Counted from the first letter of the stretch, positions 9,010-42,575 are shown. The stretch is DNA of 64,000 bases from Candidatus Bathyarchaeota archaeon (GCA_963769425.1 CAVYLP010000006.1:480001-544000), one strand, 5' to 3'. The notes: generated from the sequence alone by a model not told the origin. Numbers and translations: made by a program.

Positions 9010-9062
9010 AGCCGTGGATCAGGTTCCGATATCTCCTGTAGGATCGAGTCATGAATGCTGAC
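9010..9062 (-). other. 3' arm of the 23S pre-rRNA processing stem (pairs with 12063-12111)
   Basis: GAAGCCGTG..CAGGTTCCGA..GTCATGAATGCTGA is complementary to TCAGCATGAC..TCGGAACCTG..CACGGCTTC. Confidence 0.75.
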
Positions 9063-9065
9063 ATT

Positions 9066-12058
<2,993 letters not shown>

Positions 12059-12245
12059 TATATCAGCATGACCCGGTCCCACAGCTGGAGTCGGAACCTG
12101 TGCACGGCTTCATAGCCTCTTCGAGGGATTCCATCCCCCCGTGGCTCGCCCTTAGCCCCGCGAGCTGTGCTCGGGAGCCGCATATTGTGAGATTGATTTG
12201 GGTCGGGTAGTTACTTCCCCCGCATTCACTGCGTCGTTCTTTCTT

Positions 12246-13743
<1,498 letters not shown>

Positions 13744-14331: not shown

Positions 14332-14679
14332 TTGTCTAACAATGAGACTAAAACCGATGTGAGCCTCGGGGACCAATTCACGGTCCTCGTCTTGAAGGGC
14401 AAAGCGGATAGCCTGATTAGCAGGATGAAGGACGGGCGCGTAATTCTCTTTAACCGCGAGAACCCGATCTTTGGTGACCTTGAGCCGGGTATGCTCGTCG
14501 AGGTGAGGGTGAGCTTCATCGCACAGAACTACATAATAGTCGACCCCGTGGCGCCTCCTGAGAGCGGTGTCGAGGCAGTCAAGCTAGGTCTCCAGATGGT
14601 CTCAGAGACAGAGAACTGGGAGAATGCTGTGATGGCTAGAGCACTTCTCCACGTCATCGAGCAACTTGAGACCGATTAA
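14332..14679 (+). CDS. Hypothetical protein with a TRAM-like N-terminal beta domain
   Basis: GDQFTVLVL..G....DGRVILF....LEPGMLVEVRV pattern resembles TRAM; genome-typical codon usage. Confidence 0.55.
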   Translation: MSNNETKTDVSLGDQFTVLVLKGKADSLISRMKDGRVILFNRENPIFGDLEPGMLVEVRVSFIAQNYIIVDPVAPPESGVEAVKLGLQMVSETENWENAVMARALLHVIEQLETD

Positions 14680-14901
14680 TCCACATTTTTATTTTCATTT
14701 TTTTTAAATCACCCGATAGAATTGCTTGATGCGTTGATCGTATTAAATTACAAAATGACTTTCCTATGGGTTTACTCACTGAGTTGTTCATTTTTCTTGC
14801 TGAGTTAAAGTGAGGGGTAGATATCACCGATCCAGCCTCCTGATCGGGGCAATGTGATCCGGGTAAAAACCGGGTAAAAACAGGGTATCATGGACTCTCT
14901 T

Positions 14902-15075
14902 GTTCCAGGTAACATGGTACATGTTCCTAGTAGCGTGGAACAGATCGTTCCCAGTAGGGTGGAACATGCGGGTCCTTGATGCACGCGTGGTGTTCCGGGT
15001 AAGGTGGTACGTGTTCCTGGTAGCAGGGTACAATTGTTCCTAGCTAGATGGAACATGTTCCTAGTAGGACGGTAT
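14902..15075. repeat. Array of seven 19-bp quasi-palindromic units GTTCC-N9-GG(T/A)AY
   Basis: Units start at 14902, 14923, 14947, 14992, 15013, 15036 and 15057. Confidence 0.9.
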
Positions 15076-15230
15076 ATTGGTTTATCCACGTTTTTCATAA
15101 TTTTTCCTTACCCCTTCCAGTCGCTGCACCAGTAGAGGTGGGCTTTAGGCTGCCCGAGGACTGCGAGGTTCTGAAGGCATCTGACTAGCTATTCTCGTTT
15201 CGAGGCGTGCGGTTTTGTGAGGTGATGCGG

Positions 15231-29663: not shown

Positions 29664-30794
29664 GGTGGTCGGTGTGCCGTTCGTAGTATTTCGATTTGAA
29701 GATATACTTTCATTTTAAACATAGCGACAAACCGACAAAGACCTAATCATAGGAAAAATATTATCAGACCGAAATCGGGTGACCAAACAAAAGGTCTAGG
29801 AAAAGAATGGCAGAAAAACTACGAATACTATCTAAACATAAATAAACTCCTAAAAAAATAACGAGGCCAAAATATATTCCCATTATCAATTCAGAACCCG
29901 GAAAATGGTTGATTAGAAGAAGGAGATAGTTCTAGAGCCTTTAGAATATTATATATTCTTGAGAAAATATTGTTTATTCCTAAGAATATTAATCAATATT
30001 TCTACACTAAAAAAAATAATATTTTATACATTTATTGAGGTTCCAATGAATATATTGGGACGCAATAAAACCGCTGTGTATTATTCCCTTAAATATAAAA
30101 ACGGGTGTGCTACCCGAGCCCTCTGAGCATATATGGATCAGATATTAGCCAAACTCAGCTGTCATATTTAGCGGAAAAATTGACAAACCTTTTAGAGGGA
30201 TTCAGAAACATCAAGAAAAATGAACAGGGACTCCACTCCCGGTCACGAGGTATCATTCCAGAGTACAATGAGAAAAAACCCTTGTTTCGGGAAAAAAGAC
30301 TCGTTTGTCAAAAAAGAGCCTTTTTATAAAATGCCACAAGAGGTTGTTTCTCTCCCAATTTTTAGGATCTTGTACTCGAGCTTGGAGCCAGCTTCTTGGG
30401 TGAATTTGCATGATTATAATTACCTTTTCTTCTCAGTGTAACTGTAGATCCTGCTATCCTCCCTGTAGCCTGGTATAGACCACTCTATCTTATGCACCTA
30501 AGCATAGTTCCCATAGGCTATCGCCAAATTCCTCTTGTAACCCTCATTCCTCTCAAGCCTAGCCAGAAACCCTCGATCTGACTCAGGATCAGAGAGATCG
30601 GCATTCTATAAGAGTGCCTTCAGGAGATTGGCGTTGTTTCTAATTGTGTCTTCTCTAAGCCCCTTCTTCCTCATCTCCACAGAACTTGGAAAATCTTCTG
30701 ATCTAGAAGTGATCTAGATTCAGATTCCTAAGTGTAGTCGGTATTCCGGTAAACGGTCGGTATACCGTTGTAGGTGGTCGGTGTGCCGGTCGTA
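29664..30794. mobile_element. Decayed integrative element inserted at the 3' end of rnpB, bounded by 22-bp direct repeats
   Basis: GGTGGTCGGTGTGCCG(T/G)TCGTA at 29664-29685 and 30773-30794 (21/22 identical); AT-rich interior; integrase relic. Confidence 0.75.
30420..30700 (-). pseudogene. Tyrosine recombinase/integrase N-terminal relic
   Basis: QKIFQVLW/MRKKGLREDTIRNNANLLKALL*NADLSDPES..FLA...NEGYKRNLAIAYGNYA*VHKIEW..P.Y resembles the N-terminus of archaeal integrases; two TAG stops; no catalytic domain. Confidence 0.65.
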
Positions 30795-31082
30795 ACCCAC
30801 CTTCTGTTCTAGGCGGCATTCAGCTATACGGGCTACCCGCGCCCCCTGCAGGAGGGACCCGGCGCCTATTCGCCCTTTCACCCCGCGGGTCGGCCGTCTC
30901 AACCCTGCCACCCGGCGTCCTCGCCCCTGACCGGGGCTCACAGCATTTGCCGGGGGAGGTACCGTTTCTGTCCGGAGCCGACGCTCTCGCGCCACGCCTC
31001 GCGGCGTCGCGGTCCTGCTCGGTGGATGGAGTTTCCTCAGACCCTTGCGGGCCCGGCGGCCGCTCACCGGCTCACCGACCAC
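30774..31082 (-). ncRNA. rnpB: RNase P RNA (archaeal type A)
   Basis: P1 GTGGTCGGTGAGCCGGT/ACCGGCACACCGACCAC; GAGGAAACTCC, ACAGAAAC and AACAGAAGGTGGGTTA conserved regions; TTATA box ~31105-31109. Confidence 0.95.
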
Positions 31083-38859: not shown

Positions 38860-39130
38860 CTATATTTTAGAAGGCATCTCACCTTACGCATCTTATATAC
38901 TTTTGGTTTATCAGAGCGCTGATGTTTGACATAATCTTGTTAAGTACGGATGGTTTTGGATGATCCTCTCATCCCTTTTTTGGGTCGGAGATGGGTCAGA
39001 AGGAAGCGAGGGAAAACTCCGACAATTAAGATCATTTACGCACTTTTGTAAATATTCGATATTAACGGAGATCTATTTTAGCCCTATTTTTTCAAGTGGA
39101 GCCTTTTTGAGCAAAGAGGCGAGTTCTCCC

Positions 39131-39733
39131 CTATTTTTCGGATATACGACGTATGTATTCTAGATCCTTGGCAGTGTCGACATCCATGAGGGATTTCAGG
39201 TTGGGATCAATGGCTCTAATCTCGTCCATTGGGACTCGCGTAACGTCAGGTAGAGTGTCAAGGATTAACCTGAGTCTCTTCTCCCCCGACTCGATTAGTA
39301 CTAGGGCAGCGTCGGATGCCTTCCTCGACCTATAGACTGAGTGGAGGGGTTCGACCCAGCCGTTCGGCCAGTATGGCGTAGCTGCATCGTGCCCTGCAGC
39401 CTTAGCGAAGAGAAGCTCGACGACGCGTGGGTCGATGAGGGGTTGATCACCGCCGGTGAGGAAGGTGTACTCGCCGCGCGCCTCTTTTAGGCCAGTATAT
39501 GCTCCGACGAGTGGTGAGCCTCGGGGGAGGCGATCGGCGACGACTCTTGCACCGAAGGACGCGTAAGCCTCCTTCTGAGCCTTTGAGCCAACGACTATTA
39601 CAATATCTTCGACGATGGGTTTGAGCCGCTCAACAATGTGGGTAATTATGGGTTCCCCGTTAAGGATTATTAGCCCCTTATCTCCGCCCATTCGGCTGGA
39701 TTTTCCTCCCACGAGGACCACGGCTGAGCGCAT
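39131..39733 (-). CDS. mobA: Molybdenum cofactor guanylyltransferase
   Basis: VLVGGKSSRMGGDK, PL.G.YTGL, D.P, EPLHSVY. Confidence 0.9.
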   Translation of the reverse strand: MRSAVVLVGGKSSRMGGDKGLIILNGEPIITHIVERLKPIVEDIVIVVGSKAQKEAYASFGARVVADRLPRGSPLVGAYTGLKEARGEYTFLTGGDQPLIDPRVVELLFAKAAGHDAATPYWPNGWVEPLHSVYRSRKASDAALVLIESGEKRLRLILDTLPDVTRVPMDEIRAIDPNLKSLMDVDTAKDLEYIRRISEK

Positions 39734-39996
39734 TACAACTCTTCTTATTGATGTATGCGGTGAAAAAGATTGCATATAGCCTACGGTTTTGTAGTTGATT
39801 AGCGAGCTGTAAATGGTTGCGATCTAGATATCCAGAAGTAGAGAATAGCTAAAACCAGGGGATGTTTCTGTACCTCTAGCACGCAAACTGTACCCTATGG
39901 GAGAATATTTGGTACCCGGTAGGAGGGTATAGCGATTTCTCCACATTTAATCTCAACAGGGGGGATTACACGCACTGTGGTGTAACCCATGTTTGA

Positions 39997-40405
39997 TTAT
40001 TGGCTGAACGTTAATCTCATCTCGGCGACCGCGCCGGCCTTATTGCGCCCCTGTCGGGTAGGCCAAGCCTCCACGCTGGCGCCCCGGTCATCTTGTGGAC
40101 GGCCTCGGGGAGCGAGAGGGCGTCCCCACCCACGTAGCGCTGGAGGACGCGTGGGAAGGTGCCGAAGCTCCTCGGGTGCACCGGGGAGGTCAAGCCACCC
40201 CGCTCGGATGTCCCATCGGAACCTATCATGACCGCCTCGTGCCTCATTAGGACCCTGATGTCGTCCTCGAGGCCGAAGAGGCATGAATGGGACGTTATCG
40301 TCCTCGGTGACGATGATGTCGTATGCGGTGTCGATCGGGTCTCGCTTCAGCTCGTCTGCTATCTGCTTGACCGTCTTTCCGCTGTATGCCCGGTATGCTT
40401 CGCTC
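39997..40405 (-). pseudogene. N-acyl-D-amino-acid deacylase (D-aminoacylase) fragment
   Basis: GKTVKQIA..DP.D and MIGSDG..HPRSFGTFPRVL.RYV..LSLPEAVHKMTG.PA.RLGL.DRG.I in different frames; 5' part missing. Confidence 0.8.
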
Positions 40406-40426
40406 TCCAGGTAGCATGTTAACCAT

Positions 40427-40640
40427 GTGCCTGGTAGCTGGGTACCGGCGGTACCCACTAGCAGGGTACATGGTACCTAGTAGCAGGGTACAGGTGCACA
40501 TATCCGTGCAAGTTGGTACCCAGTAGGAGGGTACCACGGTACCTAGTAGCAGGGTATACGGTACCCTGTAGGGGGGTACGCGGTACCCAGTAGGGGGGTA
40601 TAACGTTTTTTCATTGTCTCTGTACCATGTAGCAGGGTAC
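40427..40640. repeat. Array of eight 19-bp quasi-palindromic units GTRCC-N9-GGTAY
   Basis: Units at 40427, 40451, 40473, 40516, 40539, 40561, 40583 and 40622; outliers at 39912 and 40764. Confidence 0.9.
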
Positions 40641-40859
40641 CGCAATTTTCCGCGTGTCTGTTCCCCGTCGGGAAGGTGTGGTGCGTAGCTGGTTGTGTGT
40701 GTATTCCTCGTAGTTTAGGTATCGAAAAAAAACGCCATTTTTGTACCTGCCAATAGGAATCAGATTCCTAGTAGGGTGGTATGGCTCATTGGCTGAACTC
40801 AATTAATTCTATCACATCGGACAATATCCTTAATCCGGCTGATAGGCTCATAGACCTCA

Positions 40860-41237
40860 ATGTCCAGGATATTTAACGTGAATGAAGCTCGGAAGTCCAT
40901 GAATCCAGGTGTTAGCGACATGTACTGGCTTGTCGACAAGGACCTCGGTGCATCAAAGTTTATGACGGTTCTCTACGAGTACCAGCCTAACTTCTCTACA
41001 AAACGTGTCCACTACCACGAGAAGCGCGAAAGTGCCTATATAGTCCTCGAAGGGGAAGCCCGCATCCATCTTAATGGCGAAGACCACATCCTACATCCAG
41101 GTGATGCTGCCTACCTCTCACCAATGGATATCCACGGCGTTGTCGGCTCAGGGCCAAAGGGACTCAAGATGATTGAGATATGGGCACCGCAAGAGAAGGA
41201 TGTCATCTACCTCGAGGACGGCAAGGTAGTAGAGTGA
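40860..41237 (+). CDS. Cupin domain protein
   Basis: HYH...E.AYIVLEG..G....L.PGD..Y.....H. Confidence 0.88.
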   Translation: MSRIFNVNEARKSMNPGVSDMYWLVDKDLGASKFMTVLYEYQPNFSTKRVHYHEKRESAYIVLEGEARIHLNGEDHILHPGDAAYLSPMDIHGVVGSGPKGLKMIEIWAPQEKDVIYLEDGKVVE

Positions 41238-41416
41238 AACTTAACAGGATCCCCGAAATCTGATTATCGTACCCGTGGAAACCTACCCCATGAATAGCTG
41301 GGTGTATCTCACTTTCGTGTACTCGGGATGAAAACATGGTTGCCTATACTTGGGATGAACCTGGTCACGGGGATCATTAGAGCCAGGATATCGAGTTGGA
41401 AAAAAAGGGGCCTGCT

Positions 41417-42388
41417 TCATTTCTGATATTGTAAAATTACGAATGTGTTTGGCAAGATCGGCGGGCGAGGCCTCGGTTGCTCGACCGTGGGTTCAGGCGT
41501 CGGGCCGTATTCTGCGGTTGGTAGAAATAGAGCATGTGTCCTAAGGTCGATTGTCATGGTTCGCGCCCCACGCTGAGTCGCGATCGTATCCAGAATGGAG
41601 AAGCTATCCGGAGAATCCTCTCTTACGATCGTCAGGGTTCCCTCCCCGTTGGACGCGAAGACAAGTTTCCTCTCGGGGTCAAACATGCAGCCATCGCAGC
41701 CGCCGCCAATCGGTAACGAGGCGAGTACGCGCCCGTCGTCGGCGTCTAGCACGATCATGAACTTGTTGCGGGTCACCGAGAAGAGGCGCCGATTCTTCAA
41801 GTCAATGGCGAGCCCAGTGGGGGACTCTCCGGGTGCGATAGGCCACCTTGATAGGACCTCAAGCGTCTTCGAGTCGATCACCATGACCTCACTCGTGTCC
41901 TCGTTGTTGACGTAGACGTGCCCCAGACCGTCCGCGACGGAGAACTCGGGTTTGCCGCCGAGGGGAATGGTCGCTATGACCTCTCCGGTCGCCGCGTCAA
42001 TGACGGACGCATCGTGGCTAACGCCGTTGAATACGAAGACCCTCTTCGAGGACGAGTCGAAGCGGATGGCGTCCGGGTTTTTACCCACGGCTACCTCCTT
42101 CATGACCTTCAGGGTATTAAGGTCGAAGATGCTCACCGTCGAAGCGCGTCCGTTGCTCGCGAAGCCTCGTCCAAGCTCGCTGGCAATCGCCACCCCGTGC
42201 ACCCCCTCGGTCTTGAAGACCACGCCGACCACATCGAGTGTGTCCGCGTTTAGGACGTGGACCCTGTCGTTGTGGGTGACGTAGAGGCGACGCGCCGCTT
42301 CGTCGACTACCAGGTAGTCCCATCCTCCCTCGCCACCTATGAGGAGTTTTCTAGTCAAGTGGTAACCCGATGGTGATTTGCCCGCCAT
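41417..42388 (-). CDS. YncE/YVTN-family beta-propeller protein
   Basis: GGWDYL, GVHGVA, GKNPDAI, GKPEF, GARTM repeats. Confidence 0.85.
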   Translation of the reverse strand: MAGKSPSGYHLTRKLLIGGEGGWDYLVVDEAARRLYVTHNDRVHVLNADTLDVVGVVFKTEGVHGVAIASELGRGFASNGRASTVSIFDLNTLKVMKEVAVGKNPDAIRFDSSSKRVFVFNGVSHDASVIDAATGEVIATIPLGGKPEFSVADGLGHVYVNNEDTSEVMVIDSKTLEVLSRWPIAPGESPTGLAIDLKNRRLFSVTRNKFMIVLDADDGRVLASLPIGGGCDGCMFDPERKLVFASNGEGTLTIVREDSPDSFSILDTIATQRGARTMTIDLRTHALFLPTAEYGPTPEPTVEQPRPRPPILPNTFVILQYQK

Positions 42389-42575
42389 TTTGTGTCAACA
42401 GCTTGGGGTTCAAGCGGGGATATAAGACGTGACAGGAGATTTGTTGAAAAGTATAGATGAAAAATGTGAGCCGTTTCAGAAAACAAGTGCACGTTTGAGC
42501 CTTTTCTCGATATACAAAAACGGGGTCTGGGAGTCTAGACAAAATTGTTATGCGGTGTGAGGGGGGTAGAAGGGC

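Follow-up and report, generated by a model that had tools for sequence, protein, structure and literature searches.

An array of phased, dyad-like units in a Bathyarchaeota genome as a probable module of a lineage-restricted repeat family

Between a MobA-like transferase gene and a cupin gene of Candidatus Bathyarchaeota archaeon lies a row of short, co-oriented units that share their geometry with a second array in the same window (the whole stretch of DNA analysed here, 64 kb at C6:480001-544000 of a 2.55-Mb genome, G000, in six contigs and 91% complete). The locus raises the question of what such a row is: a site for organizing the chromosome, as the initial annotation proposed, a regulatory cassette, a template for structured RNA or a repeat with a history of its own. 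Interspersed non-coding repeats have been well studied in few bacteria and hardly in archaea. We give somewhat better than even weight to the last reading, in which the row (array 2) belongs, as a single module, to a non-coding modular repeat family that is young and restricted to its lineage, an archaeal analogue of BIME/REP, BOX or MITE-type elements.

Array 2, array 1 and their neighbors

All eight units originally assigned to array 2 were recovered by pattern match, each on the + strand and of the form GTACC-N9-GGTAC, with starts at 40427, 40451, 40473, 40516, 40539, 40561, 40583 and 40622. The spacings recomputed from these coordinates, 24, 22, 43, 23, 22, 22 and 39, are identical to those first given. 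With up to two mismatches allowed, GTNCCNNGTAGNNGGGTA has 20 matches in the window against 1.53 expected (largest 7), and none of 100 shuffles reached 20. Outside array 2, these matches comprise the copies at 39912 (no mismatch) and 40764 (two mismatches), six array 1 units at 14902-15057 and four scattered copies with two mismatches each. Tandem Repeats Finder reports a period of 22 at 40449-40600, with 6.9 copies and 70% matches. A 21-nt non-repeat spacer divides the two blocks of units, a junction half-unit lies at 40407-40425, and BLAST alignments to other arrays of the same type (type F, below) stop at 40643. The features are collected in Table 1.

Table 1. Features at and around the two arrays, in window coordinates
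Feature	Position	Strand	Remarks
Array 1 block (module type B)	14859-15180	+	short A-run leader, seven GTTCC-type units (14902-15074), weak module end, ~100-nt tail
MobA-like transferase gene	39131-39775	-	left neighbor of array 2
Decayed module end	39860-39967	+	includes the copy 39912-39930; R1 match 39910-39967
Amidohydro_3 (D-aminoacylase-like) remnant	40019-40409	-	frameshifted, internal, truncated at array 2
Array 2 body (module type F)	40410-40600	+	seven GGTACC-type units, blocks of three then four
Module-end motif of array 2, GTATAACGTTTTTTC	40598-40612	.	BRE/TATA-like on both strands, terminator-like on the + strand
Final unit of array 2	40622-40641	+	39 nt past the preceding unit; right boundary of the module
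Two overlapping C-element fragments	40686-40795	+	BLAST to the C-element reference: C6:520686-520761 and C6:520743-520795
Cupin gene	40860-41237	+	right neighbor of array 2

Two further copies of the motif had been described as isolated. Their positions and + strand hold, but their isolation does not. The copy at 39912 sits in a decayed module end, recognized by a match to our module-end model, R1 (E 5e-6 in one search and 1.6e-4 in another), with degenerate units upstream of it when read by eye, while the copy at 40764-40781 lies inside fragments of a second repeat, the C element. An 11-nt direct repeat at 39998 and 40789 showed no extension on alignment. For window positions 39000-42500 no RNA sequencing run was listed, and ten DNA runs contained just 5-11% of the words.

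The remnant to the left of array 2 records an event in which the array took part. Its DNA is 82% identical to that of a sister genome, G002 (L019:1859-2252), and, set against the intact G002 protein of 527 aa, one of its frames covers residues 332-383 and another residues 394-463. At the site of array 2, G002 has the whole amidohydrolase gene and a 600-bp A/T-rich spacer, with no array. Since homology of the remnant stops at about 40409, within a unit, and the gene is intact in G002, comparison of the two genomes shows that a deletion with one end inside array 2 took the 5' two thirds of the gene. Elsewhere in the genome, a seven-copy M20-peptidase family (C4:135313-136755 and six paralogues, three of them at C6:892-900k) is the largest paralogue group at 60% identity or more among ORFs of at least 120 aa, and one copy ends 219 bp from an array at C6:900.2k.

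Array 1 is itself a copy: by BLAST the block, its leader and tail included, has 95.3% identity with C1:235535-235856 across 322 bp, and the flanks are unrelated. The left arms differ between the two arrays as claimed, array 2 having GTACC where array 1 has GTTCC. The accompanying claim that their flanks have no sequence in common is correct in that BLAST gives no alignment between the 4-kb regions, but the module-end motif is common to both; R1 scores 66.9 bits in array 2 (40571-40648) and a weak 16.3 bits in array 1 (15050-15095). The surroundings of array 1 include an archaeal 23S-16S rRNA operon (9054-13743, - strand), and the window also holds an RNase P RNA (30781-31075, - strand), both identified with Rfam. 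The 16S gene is about 1.2 kb from array 1, which lies upstream of it, with a small conserved gene in between. A 115-aa ORF before array 1 (14332-14679, + strand) belongs to no Pfam or NCBIfam family, and 10 of 17 genus members have it at 83-98% identity; we rejected it as a partner of the arrays because it is conserved also in genomes that have none.

Unit grammar, module ends and copying

The motif had been claimed to occur genome-wide, and it does. A two-unit pattern matches 66 times in G000, its reversed control giving 0 matches; about 26 loci were counted, and an 18-mer pattern with at most one mismatch occurs 41 times. The core CCNNGTAGNNKG is present 452 times, compared to 139-169 in three Markov-shuffled genomes, and 27 same-strand clusters of at least three cores account for 153 units. 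All 26 compiled loci are intergenic, between ORFs, and the tandem, co-oriented units of 21-24 bp number 3-11 per module across the types, 7-10 in the module as we describe it.

The module types have a consensus in common, TTCC-yw-GTAG-C-n-GG, and arms that are specific to the subfamily: GGTACC in type F (array 2), GTTCC/GGAAC in type B (array 1), TTCC with GGAA or GGTA in type A, the non-palindromic GTTCC with GGTGTC in type D, GATCC in type E and inverted GATTCC pairs in type C. Across loci the modules are joined in the orders A-B-C, A-B, A-D, C-E-F, C-F and F-C. GTAG is central in the 9-nt spacer that separates the two arms; the arm-to-arm distance is fixed and the linker is 2-5 nt long. Unit spacing is accordingly narrow genome-wide, at 21 (34 cases), 22 (24), 23 (15) or 24 bases (13), with doubles at 42-45. 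These periods are mixed within arrays, so that no reading frame persists, and a coding reading of the units was rejected on this ground.

The earlier proposal of a site grammar is borne out by the identity of position classes between aligned paralogous arrays, which indicates that the unit grammar is under constraint. Identity is 0.96 in the left arm, 0.90 in the right arm and 0.87 at the GG, against 0.75 in the linkers and 0.675 at the four N positions; the 0.93 of the core is biased upward, as this class was set on the reference copy, a bias of which the arm, linker and N classes are free. Arm and core positions are conserved while N positions drift, and the units are therefore probably protein-binding sites.

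Whether such a site acts as duplex or as hairpin can be judged in part by folding. For F and B arrays the predicted fold is far better than that of shuffles, whichever strand is taken (z -2.7 to -8.4), whereas A and D arrays are no better than shuffles in six of eight strand tests (z +1.0 to -2.5). The dyad is a tendency and no more: among 49 units of the types with a 9-nt spacer, 82% of stem cells pair, compared to 77.8% in shuffles, a level that 2 of 500 shuffles reach. Two-sided changes are seen at three of six stem pairs, but 16 of the 49 units have a broken central pair. Rfam finds nothing at gathering score in the arrays, the best sub-threshold match scoring 18 bits against a cut-off of 60. 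We read the unit as a dyad-like, predicted protein site with an oriented centre and no obligatory hairpin.

A module closes in a stereotyped manner, with a unit, then ATAACG and a run of T, then one further unit 39 nt on. The string ATAA[CG]G[AT]TTTT occurs 30 times genome-wide, and 23-24 of these occurrences close an array. In all 21 aligned ends (types A, B, D, E and F) the CC of the last array unit, a G, ATAA, a G, TTTT and the CC of the unit 39 columns on are invariant, and similarity among the ends ceases past the final unit. R1 finds 49 matches in the genome, 23 of them at E<=2e-10.

The end motif also resembles the promoters of the organism. A position weight matrix (PWM) built from the upstream regions of its 42 tRNA genes (consensus CGAAAACGTTTAAAT) gives those genes a median of 12.3 bits, the 99.9th percentile of the genome being 8.1 bits. 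On the array strand, 15 of 17 module ends score 8.0-12.6 bits and two array-1-type ends 3.4; on the opposite strand the ends score 5.5-10.3 bits, and the end of array 2 reaches 9.9 bits on the array strand and 8.5 on the other. Both strands match because the motif centre, AACGTT, is palindromic. In addition, on the + strand the run of T behind the last unit has the look of a terminator. The module-end motif thus looks like a transcription signal, whether promoter or terminator.

The site grammar had initially been set against a duplicated block, and this contrast fails, as the arrays are block copies in which the order of units is kept. Array 2 aligns over 190-212 bp at 77-79% identity with C3:290534-290744, C4:178028-178238 and C4:396486-396675, unit by unit and in the same order. 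Such alignments show that modules were copied as blocks to new intergenic places. The C element, fragments of which lie to the right of array 2, is a repeat of about 110-121 nt with long inverted unit pairs; its nine full copies, when aligned, are 78-94% alike and have a sharp right end in common. No other repeat of the set is as uniform, several copies being 92-94% identical to one another, and the C element also forms short head-to-tail runs (C3:264017-264263, C3:378756-379032, C6:437465-437665 and C4:396009-396213).

Turnover, range and the search for a partner

The arrays come and go between close relatives. The best empty site is at C4:9.4k, where the gap between the flanking genes measures 31 bp in two relatives (G015 and G003), 337 bp of unrelated sequence in G002 and 1,096 bp in G000; of the last, 707 bp are an A-B-C composite, the extra 1.1 kb including about 360 bp of unique DNA around it. 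Conversely, two G002 array sites have no array in G000, and a metagenome relative, whose neighboring gene is 84% identical in amino acids, has a D-like array with a full module end upstream of that gene where the orthologous G000 site has no array. Four site comparisons, each with the array in one genome, show that array presence differs between sister species.

Over the class as a whole, the family is abundant in G000 alone. Among 401 genomes of the class, the two-unit pattern matches 66 times in G000, three times in G002 and singly in 8 of the 399 others (the reversed control gives single matches in 7 genomes), although most relatives are short-read bins in many pieces, where repeats may fail to assemble, and absence is firm only for G015 (20 contigs), G016 (30), G021 (1) and G036 (9). 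In 60 relatives R1 returned weak, partial matches alone, the best at 7e-5. A metagenome scan with the module-end pattern gave four loci, three of them real (L155, L156 and L157) and one a chance match (L154). L155 and L156, from different records, have the same D-like array and module end, both at 48 bits with R1, and the L156 array lies upstream of a 372-aa gene that by eye resembles an archaeal fructose-bisphosphate aldolase/phosphatase. A three-unit pattern gave ten loci in viral contigs, all rejected by eye as unrelated tandem repeats; in a collection of genome contigs it gave at least 112 stretches, and among the matches listed (80) all were bacterial records, the pattern being too loose. 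No match was found among 72,556 plasmid or 50,697 phage records. In the literature, supplements aside, searches turned up no account of arrays like these from Bathyarchaeia or any other archaea.

The initial annotation also stated that the protein partner of the arrays is absent from the window. This stands, and none was found anywhere in the genome. No gene is a constant neighbor, and the recurring 'ORFs' beside arrays are spurious frames inside the arrays themselves; the genes that do flank them include IMP dehydrogenase, the MobA-like transferase, cupin, LarA-like and amidohydrolase genes. Flanking pairs are convergent at 9 of 26 loci, divergent at 5 and tandem at 12, a distribution which argues that the arrays are not gene promoters.

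Known mobilizing enzymes fared no better. Y1_Tnp (PF01797) has 0 matches in G000, with the control positive in 6 of 14 genomes. The nuclease families PDDEXK_3 (PF13366) and DUF559 (PF04480) and the TnpB zinc-ribbon domain have no match in the genome, and rve has one sub-threshold match. DDE_Tnp_1, with six matches, was rejected as an autonomous partner after two full copies were read, their ends bearing no likeness to the units; at four of the six loci, unit cores are missing from the locus and its surroundings. ArsR-type paralogues, rejected likewise, lie 1.9 kb to 177 kb from arrays. The multi-copy proteins of G000 are metabolic paralogues. A three-copy 358-aa family was set aside, its weak matches being arginine-deiminase and dimethylargininase-like (E 4e-6); its copies lie at C2:30370-31449, C3:166187-167269 and C6:171803-172921, and one G002 copy lies beside an array. 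The segment C3:170.5-176.6k, between oppositely oriented repeats, holds ordinary metabolic genes and was rejected too. At the junctions examined, neither a target-site duplication nor a clean point of insertion could be made out.

Competing explanations and known systems

We propose a model where one sequence-specific protein, probably dimeric and seated on the dyad arms, would bind each unit, with a unit spanning about two turns of the helix. The conserved end motif would serve as a transcription signal (promoter, terminator or both) flanked by bound protein, and the element could spread via an enzyme supplied in trans or since lost. Host benefit need not be assumed for that spread, and the position-specific conservation is as compatible with a role for the host as with a selfish one. 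It is tempting to go further and see in the family an undescribed archaeal mobile control cassette, in which about eight phased sites for one DNA-binding protein wrap a bidirectional BRE/TATA and T-run signal and which is copied by an enzyme outside known transposase families or by a helper virus or plasmid missing from the bin. We hold this more specific version tentatively, as a possibility that falls well short of an even chance.

The promoter-like scores of the module ends, together with the fixed distances of the units from the motif and the conservation of the grammar positions, could also be expected of host regulatory cassettes, in which one transcription factor would use the units as operators or activator sites and control the end motif as a promoter, the whole forming a regulon or a set of decoy sites. 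Some neighbors are indeed paralogous genes of amino-acid or peptide metabolism, including amidohydrolases and M20 peptidases. However, neither gene at the convergent loci could be driven by an array, orientation relative to the neighbors is about half and half, the matrix fits both strands about equally on a motif that is terminator-like as well, orthologous promoters in sister species have no arrays and no regulator gene is linked; we regard this alternative as unlikely. The same promoter-like end, and the T-runs that trail array 1 on either strand, might instead belong to a transcription unit for GUAG-loop hairpins, acting as a protein sponge or being processed. The folding of F and B arrays and the covariation of arms by subfamily (GTACC/GGTAC, GTTCC/GGAAC, GATCC/GGATC and GATTCC/GGAATC) are in favor of such RNA arrays, yet A and D arrays do not share the folding, the central pair is often broken, Rfam finds no match and G-U is just slightly above A-C (112 versus 73), all of which leads us to consider this explanation quite unlikely.

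The chromosome-organizing system first suggested, made of polar, phased binding arrays for organization, segregation or replication, draws on the number of arrays, their two-turn phasing, the oriented unit and the single orientation of all six C4 loci. Polarity relative to replication was not found: orientations along C6 run -,+,-,+,+,+,-,+,+,+, those on C3 are interleaved too, and no GC-skew switch accompanies them. The motif map shows irregular rather than regular spacing between loci, and origins would not be expected at as many as 26 loci. The family is abundant in G000 alone among the 401 class genomes, near-absent from 399 of them, with locations that differ between sister species, and the archaeal SegB motif is different; we judge such a system very unlikely. 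Least probable of all, in our opinion, are relics of iteron-type replication or partition regions from integrated plasmids or viruses. Tandem co-oriented units of about 22 bp beside an A/T-rich motif would resemble iteron origins, but the neighbors are housekeeping and metabolic genes with no rep, par or integrase gene among them, no plasmid or phage record matches, and the ten matches in viral contigs are unrelated tandem repeats.

The repeat-family reading gives the locus its wider interest. The family is modular, is under position-specific constraint and carries a sharply conserved 60-nt end motif like the organism's own promoters, and it appears to have spread recently in one lineage with almost no recognizable transposases. 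It may therefore be a tractable case in which to study how repeats move without a known enzyme, and whether or not they carry portable transcription signals. The repeats account for large intergenic regions that change fast and for the truncation of at least one gene, and short-read assemblies of related genomes will break at them. For the chromosome-organizing idea the outcome is mostly negative, with nothing indicating a conserved system of that kind.

Among known systems, the iteron and centromere arrays of R6K, P1, RK2 and R1 parC consist of 17-22 bp direct repeats, spaced by about two turns of the helix and accompanied by an A/T-rich segment or a promoter. Our arrays too are blocks of direct repeats at about two turns beside an A/T-rich segment, but they sit on the chromosome, at about 26 loci where neither a rep nor a par gene is close by, and match no plasmid or phage record. 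Archaeal segregation sites offer no closer fit. The excerpted account of the SegB motif of Sulfolobales gives a 13-bp palindrome, TCTAGA-S-TCTAGA, in single sites mostly within genes (10.1101/2025.02.07.637068), and SegB sites were rejected because the unit consensus and layout differ and the arrays are all intergenic. A CRISPR array was rejected as well, the units recurring every 21-24 bp with linkers of 2-5 nt, and so was a type III toxin-antitoxin locus (ToxI-like), as there is no conserved gene on either side of the arrays. MITEs are similarly non-coding and scattered over intergenic sites, with a presence that varies between close relatives. When composites are read by eye, forward units come first and a reversed unit last, giving an imperfect inverted terminus of about 15 bp; unlike in MITEs, tandem direct repeats dominate the interior, and no autonomous element has matching ends.

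REP elements are short imperfect palindromes with GTAG 5' of the stem, and they typically flank the gene of an associated Y1 (HUH) transposase. The arrays resemble REP and BIME elements in their short, imperfectly palindromic intergenic units, present in many copies, assembled into mosaics, specific to a lineage and containing GTAG. They differ in that GTAG is central in the dyad, the arrays are long and co-oriented rather than alternating pairs, and hairpins are not maintained in two of six module types. In the excerpted source, RAYT transposases are the partners of REP/BIME elements and REPINs (PMC12306157); the Y1/HUH transposase is absent from our genome, and membership was rejected because of this absence and because GTAG is not 5' of the stem.

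With BOX the likeness is one of build and not of sequence: distinct modules, one of them tandem, are found in the arrays as well. The internal boxB is 45 nt long, versus 21-24 nt for the array units, and we know of no sequence relation between the two, which are set apart here by description and not by aligned sequences. As excerpted, BOX of Streptococcus pneumoniae and S. suis is a composite modular repeat whose internal module is tandem in variable number, and effects on neighboring expression have been proposed for it (PMC3049150). The arrays share with that excerpted description composite intergenic modules of tens to about 640 bp, clustering with other repeats and sometimes disrupting genes (PMC3049150). 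BOX is bacterial, and its terminal inverted repeats and target-site duplications, as given there, have none shown to correspond in the arrays; the unit-ATAACG-T-run-unit end, in turn, has no counterpart in the excerpted BOX description (PMC3049150). The family looks new, belonging to none of the families tested and standing nearest to BOX and BIME in build.
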